Shown piece after piece: positions 1,009-17,440 of a stretch of DNA of 20,000 nt; the first letter of the stretch is position 1, and each line of letters starts with the position of its first letter. Under the pieces are notes generated by a model. The model ran no database searches and was not told the DNA's origin. It saw only the letters and a list, made by a program, of their open reading frames with translations. Source of the DNA: an uncultured virus (IMG/VR IMGVR_UViG_3300010885_060749). Taxonomy: Duplodnaviria > Heunggongvirae > Uroviricota > Caudoviricetes. The DNA lies in the IMG/VR virus record IMGVR_UViG_3300010885_060749. The stretch is one strand, 5' to 3'. Made by a program: the position numbers and the translations under genes.

Positions 1009-1920
1009 TTATTCGTCGATTAATTGCATCAACATCTTGTAGTTTTTTCCAGTCTTGTTGTTTACAATTCTGAGGAAGTCGTTTTCCTCGATCACAGTCC
1101 AGTCGCCGCGCTCGTTTCGAAGGTGAAGGTCGCCTGTGTATATGTGAGCCCAACGTATCGCATCAGTTCCAAGAGTGTATGTGTTGTGAGCGTCAGGAAC
1201 GATGGATCCTTTCATTCCGACTGAACCGGTGATGTACAAGGAACCCGACATATAAATGTTGGAAGTCCCAGCTGTGTCAGTCGTCCCGATCCTGATATTT
1301 GTTGTCGACCCTTGATCTCCGCCCTGACCGATGTTAATGTTCTTTATGAGACCTGAGACCGTCGCCCCAGTAGCCAGATTAATACCAATCGAGCCAGTCC
1401 TGCTTGCTGCAACGTTGAGCGTGAATCCGTTAGCGTTGCTGGAATTTCCGAACGATATTGTTGAAGCAGCCCCACCGATCGCAACCGAGCTCACTCCTGT
1501 CGCAAATATTGTGGTTGATGATGCTGAGCTCGTGATGTCGCCGCCGTCAACTGCAAGATCTCCCGAGATTGTTAATGAGTTTGATCCCGTTGCGAATACA
1601 AGACCAGAAGAAGCTCCAAGAACTCCATTGTCATTAAACTGTATCTGTGTGTTTGATCCCGTTGGAGGGGAAACAAACTCGATTAAGTTGGCGTCAGCTA
1701 CACCATCACGATACCAGTACTTTTTTGAGGATCCGCTGACGATGAGTCGAACTTCCATCGACTTAAATCTAAGAGCGGATGGAATGCCAGCGTTTGCTGC
1801 GGTGAGAGCAGATGGAACGGTGTCGGCGGAACCAGTGAATGGTCCCGAGTACGAGTCAACTGGAACAGCATTGACTGGCTGGATTCCATATGGTAGCTGA
1901 AGTCCGGGAGTTACTGGCAT
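1009..1920 (-). CDS. Tail fibre-like protein (303 aa)
   Basis: Contains the fibre motifs GSNTQIQFNDNG and GDLAVDGGDIT. The C-terminus (TYTLGTDAIRWAHIYTGDLHLRNERGDWTVIEENDFLRIVNNKTGKNYKM) resembles the terminal domain of aquatic myovirus fibre proteins. Confidence 0.75.
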   Translation of the reverse strand: MPVTPGLQLPYGIQPVNAVPVDSYSGPFTGSADTVPSALTAANAGIPSALRFKSMEVRLIVSGSSKKYWYRDGVADANLIEFVSPPTGSNTQIQFNDNGVLGASSGLVFATGSNSLTISGDLAVDGGDITSSASSTTIFATGVSSVAIGGAASTISFGNSSNANGFTLNVAASRTGSIGINLATGATVSGLIKNINIGQGGDQGSTTNIRIGTTDTAGTSNIYMSGSLYITGSVGMKGSIVPDAHNTYTLGTDAIRWAHIYTGDLHLRNERGDWTVIEENDFLRIVNNKTGKNYKMLMQLIDE

Positions 1921-1932
1921 GCTGCTCTCTAA

Positions 1933-4900
1933 TTATGCCCTTACGATCGAGTGACGGTGACTCGAGGCGTACGGGGAAGCGATTGTCATAGTGTAGACCT
2001 TGTACGAAACAGCAGTACCACCACCATCATTCACGTTGAACGTGGAGAGCACGTAGCTCGATGTGATGTCAGCGTTCAAGGCGTCCAGATCGGTTACGGA
2101 AGAGATGGTGTCTGATGCCGCAACCGTGGTTGGCAGCGCCATGGTGAAGTTGACTTGGGTATTTCCAGTATCAAGCTGCGTGGTGCCACCGGCGCTCACC
2201 AGCGTCTTTGTTCCAAGTGCTCTGACGTTTGCAGAGTTCACTGGGGCGGAAGCGGAAGGACCGTAGAAGATTCCGTACTGGAACGTGATTGTTGTGCTTC
2301 CTGATGTTGAAGTCTGGTAAGCATCAACAACTTGGACTCTGTAGAGCAACGACGTGGACGTGTTGAGAGAAGAGTCGTTGTGGCTTGTCGAAGGAATTGA
2401 GATTGAGGATGGGTTACCCGAGACAGGAACTGCGCTCAAACCTGGAACGTCTGTCCAACCTCCCGTTCCATTGACCTGATACTGAACAGAGTAACTTGAA
2501 ATTGGCGCGTTCGACCTGTTCCTGGTAATGGTGCCGGTGATTGTTGAACCGACATTTCCACGCTCTCGAAGCGTGTTTGTCTCGTTTGAGAACCCACCAC
2601 CTGTCGTGGTCGTGACAGTGAGCGCCATTGTCGGAGCGGCATAAGCTTGTGGAGTCAAGTTCACGGCAGTTGTGAGCGTAGCTCCCGCGCTGTCAGTTAT
2701 GATGTACTGGTAGTTGAGAATTGTGGTGAAGAAAGAACCAACCGTGAAAGTGTGATCGTAGTACAGAGGATTTGTCGTTGCGCTTGTCAGAGTCGTCCAA
2801 GCCCCTGTTGAGCCGCTTCTGAACTGAAGCGCTGCTGTCGAGACTGTTGCGCCGAGAGTGTTGATCGTATAACTTCCAGTGATGGATGTTGTGATTGACC
2901 CGGAGATACCGAATGTGGAAGTGATCGGGTTTGTTGGAGTAAGATTCACGGTCGGATTGATAGGCTCTGCAATTGCAAGGAGGATGACTTCCGCAGGTGT
3001 CTTTCCAGTTGCTGGGATCGTGGTACCGGTTGCGTATCTTCCAAAAGTTCTTCCACCAGTCAAAGAAACTGAAAGATCACTCGGGAAAACGTAAGAGTTA
3101 ACAGTGACCTGACCGTTGGCGGATCCCGAAGTAATCGAGATGCTTCCTGTCTGTGCCATGGCGCTGGATGAGCTTGCAACAAGGTAAGGTGTACCGTCCG
3201 TTAAGCTTCTGAGTGATCCGCTCAATCCACCAGTTGCTTTGATCGTGACACCAGTCAGAGTATCAGTCGTCTTATTGTAAGTTAGACCGCTGTCACCACC
3301 GAATGTTGTTCCACCATCATTAAATTGAACGTAAGTGTCGGATCCACCCGGAGACCCACCGCCACCGCCTGAAGCAGTGAGTTCCCACTGTCCGGAAGAA
3401 TTGTAGTTGACGGTTACACCGCTTCCGGTGATGAAATCAAGACCGCCAGTAGTCTTTCTAAGAGACCCAGTTATATTCTGCGCAATAAGTGAGCCTGTTA
3501 CCTGAACGCTTGAACCGCTGATCGTTACAGCAGAGTCGCTATTGATAGAGAGGCTCTTACCAGTGTAAGCGCTGATGGTAGCGTTCTGTCCTGAGCCGCT
3601 AACAACACTCAAAAACTGAGAGTTGTCTTTCTCAAATCCAATTCCCTGAGAGCCTGCAGTGATTGATAGCAAGCTACCGGTTAGCTTGGTTAAACCCGTT
3701 CCGCCGATCTGAAACGTCTTACCGGCTGCAGCTGCGAGTGATGTAAGATCTCCCGATCCGCTGCTAATTGTTGCGAAATTAGTTCCATGACGCTGGAAGT
3801 TGATAACACCAGCGCCGTGATTAATAGAGACTGTTGAACCGCTTAGCTGAGTCGAAGCTGTTCCGCCAACGCTTAAGTTTAGGGATTGAGCTGAGATGAC
3901 AGAGTCACTTGCGCCGTCGTAGGTCGCTCGAAGAAACTCTGAAGCTCCGCGATAAAGTAAGATTTGACCGTCGTTAGATCCAAGCGTTAGGGTAGATCCA
4001 CTAATCGTGAGATTTACCGGTGTTCCTGACTGTAATCTTCCAAGTATCTTTGGGCTGAATAAGTTGGAGCTATCAACCGCAAGTCCGCCGTTGGAATTCG
4101 AATCAAACCATGTAAGACCAGAGTACGAATCAATGTGGACTGAGCTGCCAGAGAGATACAACGACGGAAAAGCAGCTTCTGTCGATCGAATGAGAGCTGA
4201 TGAACCACCAGATCTTGAAAAAGAGATGTACTCAGACTCAGCTTCAAAGAATTTAACCGTATTTCCAGAAGCAGCTTTCAGCTGGACTGCAGTTCCGCTG
4301 GCAACTAGCGTCGAACCGTCTGAAGACGTAATAAAAGCTGTTGTTCCGTTGACTTGAAGAGATGAAGCTCTGATCGGCTGCAAGCTGCTAACAGCAATTG
4401 CAGTTGCGCCGGGAGTGGATGTTGTCTTTGTGGCGACAAATGACCCGCTGTTGTTCGACCATGCAAAAGCGACATTGTTACCAGCTCCCGTGATACCACC
4501 GATGAATCCACGATCTCCAGCTGATCCAGCCACCGATCCGGTGGTGAAACCAAGACCTATGAGCGGATCTTCAACCGTGATATTGGAAGCGTCAACAGTT
4601 ACAGTCGTTCCCTGGACTTCAAGATCGCCCGGAACTACGACCCTGCTTGTGCTTGATCCGAGGTTGAGAGTTGTTGCTGAAGTTGCAAGGTTAAACGTTG
4701 ACGCAGTTGTGGTAATATCTCCACCGTCGACCGCAACGTCACCCGAAAATTGAGCGTTTGTTCCCGTTACGTTACCAATTACGTAATGTGATCCAGAGAT
4801 GACGACATCGCCACCGAACACAGACTTTCTAGCAGTAGCATCAGTAATGCCAGATGTTCCGCTGACAAAGAAGAATACATCGGAACCGGCGTTCTGGGCT

Positions 4901-5286
4901 GCGTAACTTGACCCCAGAGCTCCCGCAATGGATACTGAAGCGGTTGAGTTGAGACGTGGGGATGGGGAAAGCTCATTCCAGTTGCTTGTGCCTCCGCCCC
5001 CTCCTCCGACAGAATATGACGCGCCCGCTGAGTTGTAGATTGTACCTGAAATGACGACGTCACCCTTGAAAGTGACAACTCCACGAGATGATGAATTTTT
5101 AGAACCTGCAGTTCCTGAAATGAAAAGCCAGGTATCAGATCCGGTCGTGAAATGTGATGCGAAGAACCCACCTGACTGATCCGTTGCAGAACCAAGCCCA
5201 TAGATCAGAAGCGGTGAAGATGCAGTGCTTCCAGAGTTGATGATCTGGTTAACGCGTATCTGTCTTGCGCGAAAATCTGCTGACAT
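1933..5286 (-). CDS. Long tail fibre / receptor-binding-like protein (1117 aa)
   Basis: Long S/T/G-rich ORF with poly-Gly hinges, a GSDTYVQFNDGG motif, about five ~52-aa SGS-initiated repeats and beta-rich C-terminal domains. Confidence 0.8.
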   Translation of the reverse strand: MSADFRARQIRVNQIINSGSTASSPLLIYGLGSATDQSGGFFASHFTTGSDTWLFISGTAGSKNSSSRGVVTFKGDVVISGTIYNSAGASYSVGGGGGGTSNWNELSPSPRLNSTASVSIAGALGSSYAAQNAGSDVFFFVSGTSGITDATARKSVFGGDVVISGSHYVIGNVTGTNAQFSGDVAVDGGDITTTASTFNLATSATTLNLGSSTSRVVVPGDLEVQGTTVTVDASNITVEDPLIGLGFTTGSVAGSAGDRGFIGGITGAGNNVAFAWSNNSGSFVATKTTSTPGATAIAVSSLQPIRASSLQVNGTTAFITSSDGSTLVASGTAVQLKAASGNTVKFFEAESEYISFSRSGGSSALIRSTEAAFPSLYLSGSSVHIDSYSGLTWFDSNSNGGLAVDSSNLFSPKILGRLQSGTPVNLTISGSTLTLGSNDGQILLYRGASEFLRATYDGASDSVISAQSLNLSVGGTASTQLSGSTVSINHGAGVINFQRHGTNFATISSGSGDLTSLAAAAGKTFQIGGTGLTKLTGSLLSITAGSQGIGFEKDNSQFLSVVSGSGQNATISAYTGKSLSINSDSAVTISGSSVQVTGSLIAQNITGSLRKTTGGLDFITGSGVTVNYNSSGQWELTASGGGGGSPGGSDTYVQFNDGGTTFGGDSGLTYNKTTDTLTGVTIKATGGLSGSLRSLTDGTPYLVASSSSAMAQTGSISITSGSANGQVTVNSYVFPSDLSVSLTGGRTFGRYATGTTIPATGKTPAEVILLAIAEPINPTVNLTPTNPITSTFGISGSITTSITGSYTINTLGATVSTAALQFRSGSTGAWTTLTSATTNPLYYDHTFTVGSFFTTILNYQYIITDSAGATLTTAVNLTPQAYAAPTMALTVTTTTGGGFSNETNTLRERGNVGSTITGTITRNRSNAPISSYSVQYQVNGTGGWTDVPGLSAVPVSGNPSSISIPSTSHNDSSLNTSTSLLYRVQVVDAYQTSTSGSTTITFQYGIFYGPSASAPVNSANVRALGTKTLVSAGGTTQLDTGNTQVNFTMALPTTVAASDTISSVTDLDALNADITSSYVLSTFNVNDGGGTAVSYKVYTMTIASPYASSHRHSIVRA

Positions 5287-15332: not shown

Positions 15333-15407
15333 TGGTGATCCCACTGGGAGTTGAATCCAGCTTACGAGATTGAAAGTCTCGAGTCCTAACCGATAGACGA
15401 TGGGATC
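15333..15407 (-). tRNA. tRNA-Glu(TTC)
   Basis: Cloverleaf with GATCCCA/TGGGATC acceptor, CGAGA-CTTTCAA-TCTCG anticodon arm and encoded CCA. A53.C61 mismatch in the T-stem. Confidence 0.92.
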
Positions 15408-15411
15408 GATG

Positions 15412-15485
15412 TGGTTGGGGCGCAAGGATTCGAACCTTAATTCGCGGGGTCAAAGCCCGCTGTCCTACCGTTGAACGACGCCCCA
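15412..15485 (-). tRNA. tRNA-Gln(TTG)
   Basis: TGGGGCG/CGCCCCA acceptor, GCGGG-CTTTGAC-CCCGC anticodon arm, GGTTCGAATCC T-arm and encoded CCA. Confidence 0.95.
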
Positions 15486-15527: not shown

Positions 15528-15806
15528 TGGTGGGCCCTGTGGGAATCGAACCCACAACCTTGGGATTACATACCACTTCGACTTTCGTCGCCTTTGCAGT
15601 TCGTGGTCTGGACTATACCATCACCCTCGTCTTTCTCGTTAGGGTGCAGCCCCTCTAGTCTCTACACGTTCCCTTTCGGGCTTCGCTCGGGATTGTCATC
15701 AGCATTACCTGTTAAGAGTTCCCCGAATTTGGGCTGTGTTCGACAGAGATTTCTCCCTGAAGCTTCCATTGAAAGTCCCTTGCTCTGCCAGTTGAGCTAA
15801 AGGCCC
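15528..15806 (-). tRNA. tRNA-Lys(TTT), split by a group I intron (exon 1 15806-15772, exon 2 15568-15528)
   Basis: Joined exons give a 76-nt cloverleaf: GGGCCTTTAGCTCAACTGGCAGAGCAAGGGACTTT|TAATCCCAAGGTTGTGGGTTCGATTCCCACAGGGCCCACCA. Confidence 0.92.
15569..15771 (-). ncRNA. Group I self-splicing intron (IC3/Azoarcus-like, 203 nt, no ORF) between anticodon positions 35 and 36
   Basis: P1 CUUU|C-AAU-GGAAG with a U.G pair at the 5' splice site; P2 CAGGGA-GAAA-UCUCUG; P3 CAGCCC/GGGCUG; P element AAAUUCGGGGAA with P4 UCGGG/CCCGA; R GUGUAGAGACUAGA; S GGUAUAGUCCA (P7 GACUA/UAGUC); P9-region CGAC-GAAA-GUCG; terminal omega-G. Confidence 0.93.
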
Positions 15807-16477
15807 GTTAAATTTTCTTTTAACTTTTTCGCTCTGAAGTAGTTTGCACCTTTAGGAGCTAAACCAACTTTAATCAGCGCCTGACGAATTGACAAGCTGC
15901 TTTTTAGTGCTTCTGAAAGATCTTCATCACTCACTCTTTTTCTAGAGTTACTTTTGCTTTTATTTCTGCCTCTCCACGTGTGAGTTAGAGAATGGCAATT
16001 TGGGCAAAGAAGCTCTAGGTTCGATCTGTCATTATTATTTGTGTTTCCATCGCGATGTTCAAGCTCTAGAGTTATTTTTTGTCCGAGCCAGTTTTCTAAT
16101 CCGCAATGGTTACATTTACCAGATTGTTCACGGAAAATTTTTTCTCTTTTCAAGATGATTGAAAGTTCTTCAAATGAAGCATTTAGCTTGACTTCCAATC
16201 TGTTTTGATTATATCTTTCGCGTTCAAGCTTTGCATCATTTTTATCGCAATTTGACTTGTGCCCTATCAGAGCCATCTTCGAACCGAATTTTTTACCGCA
16301 CCCATCACACTCAAAATCTTTGGGACATTCTCTACCAGACAAAGACTTTGAGACTTTTTCATTTATCTCTTTTCTCTTCGATCTAGTCGAAAATGACCTC
16401 GAACATTTTGCGCTGCAGAATCTTCCGCTTCCATACGAGGCATCATGAGAGATTGAGCAATTTTCGCATTCGAACAT
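15797..16477 (-). CDS. Free-standing HNH homing endonuclease with zinc fingers
   Basis: HNH core CNHC...LELEHRDGNTNNNDRSNLELLCPNCHS. N-terminal CxxC..CxxxC finger, a C2HC-type finger (FECDGCGKKFGSKMALIGHKSNC) and a C-terminal SIRQALIKVGL..KGANY helical module. Visibly more AT-rich than its flanks; GAGG RBS. Confidence 0.9.
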   Translation of the reverse strand: MFECENCSISHDASYGSGRFCSAKCSRSFSTRSKRKEINEKVSKSLSGRECPKDFECDGCGKKFGSKMALIGHKSNCDKNDAKLERERYNQNRLEVKLNASFEELSIILKREKIFREQSGKCNHCGLENWLGQKITLELEHRDGNTNNNDRSNLELLCPNCHSLTHTWRGRNKSKSNSRKRVSDEDLSEALKSSLSIRQALIKVGLAPKGANYFRAKKLKENLTGL

Positions 16478-16527: not shown

Positions 16528-17124
16528 TTATTTCGGCTTCACGCCACTTTTTAGCACAATCTCGCAGATGTGATCGAGACGCTCAACGTGCTCAAAAGCT
16601 GACCACGGATCACCAGCGACTGCGCAGACCCCGTGATTCGCTTGCCCTACGATATCATACTGGAGCGACCCGTCCGGTAGGCACCCCAGATGCACCCCAG
16701 TCATATCGCCCAGTTCACGTGATGTTGCCGGCAGGGCAGGTACGTTAGGCCCTACTCGGGTGTACCGGTTCACTTCTGGAAACTGTCTGGCGAGCTCCTG
16801 AAGGTCCCAACCTGCAAACATTGCTGCAACCACATGGGTCGCGTGAACATGAACGACGGCGCGGGTTTTTGTGAAATCCTTCTGAATGAGCCAGTGCATA
16901 TGAAGCTCACCGCTTGCGGTTTGTCCGGAAGGAGCGATTACGCCGTCATCGACAAGCTTGCACTTCACGATATGCTCTGGGTGGATGATAGTCTTCCTCC
17001 AGCCTGAAGGCGTGATGTACAGAGTCTTCGAGTTATTACGACACAGTGAGATATTTCCGTCACGATTTGTGATCCATCCACGATCGTAGCACTTCCTCAT
17101 CACGTCGCCAATTGCAGTTAGCAT
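16528..17124 (-). CDS. Class II aldolase/adducin family protein (198 aa)
   Basis: GNISL, ITPSG, SGELHMH, AVVHVH..H and NHGVCAVA. Start moved to the ATG at 17124 (GGAG RBS); the track's extension crosses a terminator and another ORF. Confidence 0.88.
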   Translation of the reverse strand: MLTAIGDVMRKCYDRGWITNRDGNISLCRNNSKTLYITPSGWRKTIIHPEHIVKCKLVDDGVIAPSGQTASGELHMHWLIQKDFTKTRAVVHVHATHVVAAMFAGWDLQELARQFPEVNRYTRVGPNVPALPATSRELGDMTGVHLGCLPDGSLQYDIVGQANHGVCAVAGDPWSAFEHVERLDHICEIVLKSGVKPK

Positions 17125-17149
17125 GCTAATTTTCTCCGCTCGTAAATAT

Positions 17150-17178
17150 GAAAACGGCTGGCAACCAGTGCCAGCCGT
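17150..17178 (-). terminator. Intrinsic terminator after the small lipoprotein gene
   Basis: 10-bp perfect stem ACGGCTGGCA/TGCCAGCCGT with a 5-nt loop, followed by TTTCATATTT on the minus strand. Confidence 0.7.
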
Positions 17179-17200
17179 CGCTCTATTTTGAGCTTTAGGA

Positions 17201-17308
17201 TCACTCGGCCGTAGTGGCAGAGCTCGTATCAGTGCCGGTATCGTCCTTACCACCGGTGCAACCACCGAGGAAGAGAGAACCGAGAACTGCAAGAATGACG
17301 AACTTCAT
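17201..17308 (-). CDS. Small lipoprotein (35 aa; not in ORF track)
   Basis: AAGGAG RBS. MKFVILAVLGSLFLGGCTGGKDDTGTDTSSATTAE has a basic N-terminus, a hydrophobic core and lipobox LGG-C, and is followed by its own terminator. Confidence 0.75.
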   Translation of the reverse strand: MKFVILAVLGSLFLGGCTGGKDDTGTDTSSATTAE

Positions 17309-17364: not shown

Positions 17365-17440
17365 TGGTGCCCCGGGCGGGATTCGAACCCGCCCTACAGA
17401 GATTTTAAGTCTCCTGACTCTGCCGCTGGTCTACCGGGGC
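17365..17440 (-). tRNA. tRNA-Leu(TAA) with short variable region
   Basis: GCCCCGG/CCGGGGC acceptor, GGAGA-CTTAAAA-TCTCT anticodon arm, 5-nt variable loop, GGGTTCGAATCCC T-arm, A73 and CCA; 76 nt. Confidence 0.92.

Follow-up and report, generated by a model that had tools for sequence, protein, structure and literature searches.

Can a phage tRNA gene that is interrupted within its own anticodon still supply a tRNA, and how might an intron come to lie there? The question is raised by a locus on the minus strand of a DNA fragment from an uncultured virus. The window, i.e., the whole stretch of DNA that was analysed, comprises 20,000 nucleotides and corresponds to bases 8096–28095 of a single 63,651-bp IMG/VR virus record. 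The reading preferred here, with a probability of roughly 85%, is that a large freshwater phage carries, within its tRNA array, a functional gene of tRNA-Lys(UUU) split between U35 and U36 by a compact, ORF-less, IC3-like group I intron, the splicing of which is predicted.

The phage fragment and its tRNA array

A phage source had been proposed in an earlier note written from the nucleotide sequence alone, and the origin of the window agrees with it: the IMG/VR virus fragment carries genes of phage type, namely those with PIN-PhoH, helicase, NUDIX, and tail-lysozyme domains and those of HNH endonucleases. CheckV assigns the 63,651-bp record a completeness of 21%, which suggests a large phage, and near-identical DNA is found in four freshwater-metagenome runs. 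The window also contains an ORF of 1117 aa (1933–5286, minus strand) for which neither Pfam nor PHROG gave a match at E ≤ 0.001; a number of the ORFs next to it are likewise without assignment.

Apart from the split gene, the 63.6-kb contig encodes 14 other tRNAs recognized by ARAGORN, mostly with U34 anticodons; none of these is a tRNA-Lys, and the split gene therefore fills a gap. It is the first gene in a Lys-Gln-Glu run (Table 1). AAA accounts for 302 of the 878 Lys codons in 45 long ORFs, and this codon share, together with A73 and the UUU anticodon, provides circumstantial evidence that the tRNA-Lys would be charged by lysyl-tRNA synthetase and used in translation.

The same contig carries, outside the window, a second split tRNA gene, that of tRNA-Asn(GUU), also interrupted at 35/36 (CUGU/UAA; G000:C1, approximately 1738–2006, plus strand, equal to L008:1477–1745). 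Its intron of 195 nt is 71% identical to the Lys intron and has a P1 guide, GGCAG, that fits G34; it scores 32.9 bits with Rfam, under the cut-off, and ARAGORN misses the gene.

The array also harbours genes other than those of tRNAs. A class II aldolase-like ORF (16528–17292, minus strand) and an HNH gene are located between tRNA-Leu(UAA) (17365–17440, minus strand) and tRNA-Lys. In one natural allele, L298, only about 290 nt separate tRNA-Leu from tRNA-Lys, and the aldolase-like ORF and the HNH gene can therefore be considered insertions into the array. Three more HNH-like fragments related to that of the window occur outside it in the same array (G000:C1:673–855, 3482–3625, and 4658–4876), which makes the array rich in genes, or remnants of genes, for homing endonucleases.

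Exons, borders, and detection of the split gene

When the minus-strand segments 15806..15772 and 15568..15528 are joined by script, a 76-nt tRNA-Lys(UUU) is obtained, recognized by ARAGORN as tRNA-Lys(ttt). The spliced cloverleaf is canonical, with a 7-nt anticodon loop and UUU at positions 34–36 (ARAGORN on the joined exons), and the natural intron-less alleles described below have the same sequence and are likewise called tRNA-Lys(ttt). The borders are exact. They are set by seven intron-less alleles, and the omega-G at 15569 directly precedes exon 2; the border letters, T/C...G/T, allow one placement only, between U35 and U36. The anticodon stem of the tRNA contains an A27/A43 mismatch, leaving four pairs to hold the exons.

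The insert is a group I intron. In the 20-kb window the Rfam model RF00028 (Intron_gpI) matches 15783..15587 on the minus strand along its full length (model positions 1–253) with 56.6 bits, above the gathering cut-off of 50, and an E-value of 3.2e-12, and thus this is not a chance match. The intron is too short to leave room for an endonuclease ORF. The Rfam match, the joined exons, and the intron-less alleles together bear out the earlier claim of a group I intron without an ORF in tRNA-Lys(UUU) at 35/36; the coordinates proposed for it (15528–15806), the lengths of 76 nt for the tRNA and 203 nt for the insert, and the anticodon were all exact, the feature being on the minus strand.

It had also been foreseen that a standard tRNA scan would miss or mis-call the gene, and both outcomes were encountered. 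At default settings ARAGORN does not report it in the window, and with introns allowed it returns a wrong call, a tRNA-SeC(tca) with a 185-nt intron. The program was also dropped as a means of finding borders, since its introns-allowed mode gave wrong isotypes and sites; the alternative of testing all U/G joins proved too permissive.

Table 1. Coordinates of the split tRNA-Lys gene, the structural elements of its intron, and adjacent genes (positions in the window).
Feature	Position	Strand	Description
tRNA-Lys(UUU) 5' exon	15772..15806	-	35 nt; acceptor and D arm, 5' side of the anticodon stem, loop nt C32 U33 U34 U35; ends CUUU
Group I intron	15569..15771	-	203 nt, ORF-less; starts CAAUGG; omega-G at 15569
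tRNA-Lys(UUU) 3' exon	15528..15568	-	41 nt; starts UAAUCC; U36 A37 A38, 3' side of the anticodon stem, variable loop, T arm, acceptor, A73, encoded CCA
P1	15763..15775	-	CUUUC/GGAAG, 5 bp; exon C32–U35 and intron nt 1 with the internal guide (intron nt 5–9); U35.G (intron nt 6) wobble at the 5' splice site
P2 hairpin	15744..15759	-	6 bp, GAAA tetraloop; 6 of 6 pairs changed on both sides across 24 introns
P3 5' strand	15731..15736	-	CAGCCC/GGGCUG; partner 15647–15652; 5 of 6 pairs compensatory
P3 3' strand	15647..15652	-	partner of 15731..15736
P4-P5-P6 domain	15666..15726	-	P4 of 6 bp, UCGGGG/UCCCGA; short P5 and small hairpin; P6 of 3 bp, GCG/CGU; P6a with GAAA loop; no P5abc extension
P7 5' strand	15656..15660	-	GACUA; pseudoknot with 15611–15615; 5 pairs, 100% paired; last pair A-U in 11, U-A in 11, G-C in 2
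P7 3' strand	15611..15615	-	UAGUC; start of the conserved 16-mer (P7 3' strand, J7/9, first P9 strand)
P8 hairpin	15623..15645	-	ACCCU/AGGGU
P9 domain	15573..15606	-	closing helix CCAC/GUGG round two hairpins (GCAA and GAAA loops); then UAUG ending in omega-G
tRNA-Gln(UUG)	15412..15485	-	next gene of the array
tRNA-Glu(UUC)	15333..15407	-	same array
HNH endonuclease gene	15797..16477	-	free-standing; 226 aa; TAG stop is tRNA nt 8–10

Fold of the intron and its covariation

The fold of the intron is conserved. From an alignment of 24 related introns, extended at their two ends by 9 and 6 nucleotides of the exons, RNAalifold derived P2, P3, P4, P5, P6, P6a, P8, the closing helix of P9, and one P9 hairpin, with compensatory changes in 27 of 40 pairs. 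The full model of 51 pairs consists of these helices, P1, the second P9 hairpin, and the P3/P7 pseudoknot (the names of the helices within the P9 domain are labels given in this analysis). Across the 24 introns 94.8% of its cells are paired, compared with 30–41% when the partners are slid by 1–3 columns; both sides have changed in 29 of the 51 pairs, and the covariation score was matched by none of 500 shuffles. P2, P3, P4, P5, P6, P8, and P9 are also obtained in the minimum free energy (MFE) fold of the single sequence, the energy of which is itself unremarkable for the composition (z = -1.05; an equally good fold was obtained for 30 of 200 shuffled sequences). No P10 pairing was seen in the intron fold. 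Of the core elements that the earlier note had listed, P1 with its U.G pair, P2 with a GAAA loop, P3, P4, P7, and omega-G are present, and P6, P8, and the P9 domain can be added to them.

The P1 guide tracks the anticodon of the host tRNA: it reads GGAAG opposite CUUU of tRNA-Lys and GGCAG opposite CUGU of tRNA-Asn, with A changed to C where U34 is replaced by G34. The hallmarks of subgroup IC3 are the presence of P2, the lack of P5abc, and GNRA loops on P2 and P9. The intron has a compact architecture of this type, with a GAAA loop on P2, a short P5, and P9 hairpins with GCAA and GAAA loops.

Natural alleles with and without the intron

A search with a 26-nt stretch of exon 1 yielded 12 loci, one from IMG/VR and 11 from metagenomes, and in 11 of them exon 1 is identical to that of the window. 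Seven loci (L291, L293, L296, L298, L299, L300, and L301) are intron-less, with both exons identical to those of the window and directly joined. Four others carry a 203-nt insert, which is identical to the window intron in L294 and L297 and 93.1% identical in L292 and L302, and the remaining locus, L295, is a different tRNA-Lys. The presence or absence of the intron among otherwise identical alleles shows that it is optional at the DNA level. An intron-carrying allele (L292) and an intron-less one (L293) have the same upstream flank, indicating that the gain or loss of the intron was recent.

Between the window and each of L292 and L302 there are 14 differences, of which nine fall in paired positions, and all pairs are retained. 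Three double compensations are found in these 93% alleles: A-U to G-C in P2, G-C to C-G in P6, and U-A to C-G in P9a. This is direct evidence of a fold under selection in the lineage of the phage, and the pair-preserving differences are the best available argument for continued splicing, which is thereby predicted.

An exact exon-exon joint was encountered among the contigs of four runs. In a 209-nt contig from the RNA library X15 position 15772 is joined to 15568, the 203 nt are skipped, and the exons contain no mismatches; the joint was not seen in the contigs of the DNA runs X5 and X6. In the X15 contig, however, neither tRNA-Gln nor the spacer belonging to it is present, the sequence departs from that of the window 10 nt upstream of the tRNA, and Lys is followed by Glu as in L296, an intron-less allele. 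An interpretation as spliced RNA was therefore rejected, and the contig most likely comes from an intron-less strain.

The neighbouring HNH gene and the spread of the intron

Beside the ORF-less intron an HNH ORF overlaps the 5' end of the tRNA by 10 nt. It matches 12 PHROG families at E ≤ 0.001, of which 11 are annotated as HNH endonuclease (best 1.5e-28). Among its relatives in IMG/VR, of which the best 80 of 175 were examined, 69 lie in phage tRNA arrays and have a tRNA within 1.5 kb, often one starting about 25 nt or less from the end of the HNH gene. In six loci of the same 80 (L226, L233, L251, L253, L273, and L276) the relative is located inside a group I intron of 726–785 nt in phage tRNA-Leu(UAA), at 34/35. 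In a tblastn comparison of the 12 allele loci the HNH gene was found in three of the four intron carriers and in none of the eight others, i.e., there was no HNH without the intron; two of the three HNH carriers do not differ from the window, and L292, the fourth intron carrier, lacks HNH.

These arrangements raise the possibility, put forward here tentatively, that the intron spreads by homing in trans ('collaborative' homing). In relatives infecting the same cell, the HNH endonuclease would cut the intron-less tRNA-Lys gene close to or at the insertion site; the intron, alone or together with the HNH gene, would be copied in during repair, and it would in turn shield the phage's own gene from the nuclease. 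Such a route concerns the spread of the intron and is compatible with the preferred reading of the gene. It is favoured by the position of the HNH stop codon inside the tRNA (nt 8–10), by the occurrence of HNH in 3/4 intron carriers vs. 0/8 other loci, and by the relatives that lie inside tRNA-Leu(UAA) introns in six loci or within 1.5 kb of a tRNA (69 of the best 80); in addition, collaborative homing is documented for two phage systems in the passages concerned of a 2014 review (PMC3984707). However, the intron occurs without HNH in L292, and independent genotypes are few, as the sequence of the window recurs unchanged in L294 and L297, and L299 extends only 11 nt upstream. Moreover, the HNH relatives are mostly located beside uninterrupted tRNAs, so adjacency to tRNAs is a habit of the family with or without an intron; the array contains the three further HNH-like fragments mentioned above, and the other Lys 35/36 introns (L031, L040, L050, and L051) have no HNH in the approximately 270 nt upstream.

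In its wider form the proposal is just as doubtful: the HNH gene and the ORF-less intron might together home in trans to the anticodon region of tRNA-Lys genes in phages, the intron spreading by repair and protecting its own genome, and phage tRNA arrays might display stages in the assembly of mobile group I introns as well as being a main reservoir for jumps between isoacceptors (Lys, Asn, Arg, Leu, and Met). If this were true, the natural alleles, with the intron and the HNH gene each present or absent and the HNH family captured in tRNA-Leu(UAA) introns, would represent successive stages of mobile-intron assembly. The allele series (intron with HNH, intron alone, and neither, with identical exons) is a clean system for studying trans homing and the origin of mobile introns.

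Predicted splicing and alternative readings

According to the preferred reading, the array would be transcribed and the intron would fold. Guanosine would then attack after U35, held in the U.G wobble of P1, and the 3' end of exon 1 would subsequently attack after the omega-G. The exons would be held by the anticodon stem and not by a P10 helix, and the product would have the anticodon loop CUUUUAA. In the Anabaena pre-tRNA the anticodon stem reportedly holds the exons together. At the DNA level the intron is optional and, on this reading, moves horizontally, having repeatedly changed its host tRNA within phage tRNA arrays. Against the reading count the short P1 (5 bp), the anticodon stem of only four pairs, a fold in which no P10 was seen, the unremarkable MFE, and the Rfam scores of related introns, which are mostly under the cut-off.

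Two other readings concern splicing itself. That it needs a protein, maturase-like or a host factor, or that the intron acts as a timer delaying the supply of tRNA-Lys in infection, is improbable: classical small tRNA introns self-splice in vitro, and with 7 of 12 loci being intron-less there is no need to assume an essential role in regulation. Some group I introns do need protein cofactors, according to a part of the same review (PMC3984707), and the present intron, being very compact, has few peripheral contacts, but no candidate cofactor was identified. Still less probable is a decaying passenger intron that no longer splices, with the gene a tRNA pseudogene; the short P1, the unremarkable thermodynamic z-score, and the fact that the one exon-joined contig seen in an RNA library most likely stems from an intron-less strain would fit such decay, but every core helix is intact, none of the nine paired differences breaks a pair, the exons are 100% identical to those of the intron-less alleles, and this is the only tRNA-Lys of the array.

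Related introns in phages and bacteria

A 16-nt element, beginning with the 3' strand of P7, is identical in the window intron, the tRNA-Asn intron of the same contig, and the intron of Gordonia phage Daredevil. Scans for exact matches to this 16-mer retrieved 82 IMG/VR stretches and at least 120 loci in bacterial genomes taken one per species. Host tRNA and site were called by a strict cloverleaf check combined with U at -1, omega-G, and the P1 wobble as a tie-break (Table 2). Two sources of bias affect the resulting census, namely the exact 16-mer and the loci that received no host call (44 of the 82 viral ones and 22 of the at least 120 bacterial ones listed).

Table 2. Host tRNAs and insertion sites of introns with the exact 16-mer; bacterial counts refer to the matches listed.
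Host tRNA and site	Viral loci	Bacterial loci
Lys(UUU) 34/35	8 (7 distinct)	at least 2
Lys(UUU) 35/36	7 (4 distinct, 181–192 nt)	0 among the matches listed
Lys(CUU) 35/36	0	at least 2
Leu(UAA) 34/35	5	at least 49
Leu(UAA) 33/34	3	0 among the matches listed
Arg(CCU) 36/37	4	at least 27
Arg(UCU) 34/35	4	at least 1
Met(CAU)	4	at least 12 (all 33/34 among the matches listed)
Asn(GUU)	2	at least 2
Leu(CAA)	1	at least 1
Ser(UGA) 34/35	0	at least 1
Anticodon CUA 33/34	0	at least 1

Lys(UUU) is the most frequent host among the called viral loci (15 of 38 calls from the 82 16-mer loci). Its description in the earlier note as an unusual host in phages is therefore not supported, and the cultured Gordonia phage Daredevil also has such a host, split at 34/35. 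Within the 16-mer sample and among the bacterial matches listed, Lys(UUU) serves as a host mainly in phages, and the Lys(UUU) 35/36 site, found in seven viral loci (four distinct) and in none of the bacterial ones, was seen only in phage contigs.

The suggestion that the intron is about as small as the smallest natural group I introns holds insofar as it is compact, but its phage relatives of 181–192 nt are smaller. In the 16-mer family and among the matches listed, phage tRNA introns (L031, L040, L050, L051, L022, L059, and others) are shorter than bacterial ones (L091–L210): those in tRNA-Lys have 181–192 nt, compared with at least 207 nt in Leu(UAA) and at least 215 nt in Arg(CCU). Within the 16-mer sample the phage members rank with the most compact of natural group I introns. 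Very small phage introns of 181–203 nt could be of interest to ribozyme engineers.

Trees of 123 introns are poorly resolved, 51 of 120 inner branches being open. In these weak trees the nearest to the window intron are the Asn(GUU) 35/36 introns, and the Lys 35/36 introns do not form one clade; host switching among isoacceptors with similar loops thus seems to have been repeated. The related introns are mostly under the Rfam cut-off: of six tested none reaches it, four scoring 32.9–38.3 bits and two having no match at E ≤ 0.001.

As ARAGORN at default settings misses the gene, and the Rfam cut-off misses most of its relatives, phage tRNA sets are under-counted. In the present phage the sole tRNA-Lys and one tRNA-Asn would be reported absent. 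Phage tRNA arrays are a common home of compact introns of the tRNA type, including those of cultured Gordonia and E. coli phages. In the latter, the jumbo phages Escherichia virus TH47 (L003; MT446416, approximately 162.2–162.5 kb) and Turkey5 (PQ471516), a group I intron of 230 nt, scoring 100.5 bits with Rfam, interrupts a tRNA with the anticodon CAU at 36/37; the site is the classical one of Azoarcus Ile(CAU), and ARAGORN with introns allowed miscalls the gene as Arg(acg). It is also worth mentioning that in Rhizobium phage RHph_N3_13 (L004; MN988507, approximately 37.5–37.8 kb) a group I intron (Rfam, 83.6 bits) adjoins a CDS annotated as 'partial ribonucleoside reductase N-terminal protein', and this nrd gene is probably intron-split rather than partial.

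Comparison with known systems

Group I introns in the anticodon loops of tRNAs have long been known, and the window intron is a solid further example of a phenomenon that is under-annotated, with no new mechanism. According to the relevant part of the 2014 review, every group I intron known from phages at that time resided in a protein gene, although phages have many tRNA genes (PMC3984707). No paper dealing with group I introns of phage tRNA genes, or with an intron in Lys(UUU) at 35/36, turned up in a literature search; in the parts of the candidate papers that were accessible, the passages concerned introns in protein genes or the terms stood in reference lists only, as in PMC11809585, where the accessible part has the term only in the title of a reference on group I introns in 23S rRNA.

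The classical IC3 introns of tRNAs are those of Leu(UAA) at 34/35, Arg(CCU) at 36/37, fMet at 33/34, and Azoarcus Ile(CAU) at 36/37, named Leu.3Ug, Arg.5Ug, fMet.2Ug, and Ile2.5Ug, respectively (Williams 2020, bioRxiv 10.1101/2020.01.27.920355). The window intron resembles these bacterial and plastid introns in its tRNA host, its location in the anticodon loop, its compact form without P5abc, the U at -1, and the omega-G. The exact 16-nt P7/J7-9/P9 element is common to it and to at least 49 Leu(UAA), at least 27 Arg(CCU), and at least 12 Met(CAU) bacterial introns, and it can be aligned with the classical introns at approximately 62–69% identity; owing to the shared 16-mer and this alignment it is grouped with them. 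Its membership in subgroup IC3, based on architecture and on homology to the IC3 classes, is best expressed as IC3-like. Unlike the classical introns, it has tRNA-Lys(UUU) as the host, 35/36 as the site, and a phage genome as the residence, and its length of 203 nt compares with at least 207 nt in the bacterial members among the matches listed.

Williams raised the number of intron-split tRNA classes in bacteria from 4 to 21 (bioRxiv 10.1101/2020.01.27.920355). As in those classes, the exons define the borders and the rule of U at -1 and omega-G applies, and the window intron would be 'Lys.4Ug' in that nomenclature. The survey covered bacterial and archaeal genomes, not phages, and the portion of its running text that was available names no Lys class.

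A close counterpart in a cultured phage is that of Gordonia phage Daredevil (NC_048021, approximately 41.8–42.1 kb; L002:357–667, minus strand), an actinophage in which tRNA-Lys(UUU) is likewise interrupted. Its intron, too, has no ORF, belongs to this family, and contains the 16-mer. It differs in length (238 nt), in its site one nucleotide earlier (34/35), and in sequence, being 63% identical to the window intron; it has no Rfam match at E ≤ 0.001, and no annotated feature lies beneath it.

With regard to mobility, the locus resembles the collaborative homing systems of cyanophage psbA and of T7-like phages, as described in part of PMC3984707, in the combination of a free-standing endonuclease with an ORF-less intron and in the existence of intron-less alleles in related phages. 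It differs from both in that the host gene is that of a tRNA and not of a protein, in that one allele has the intron without HNH, and in that homing is here a tentative proposal.
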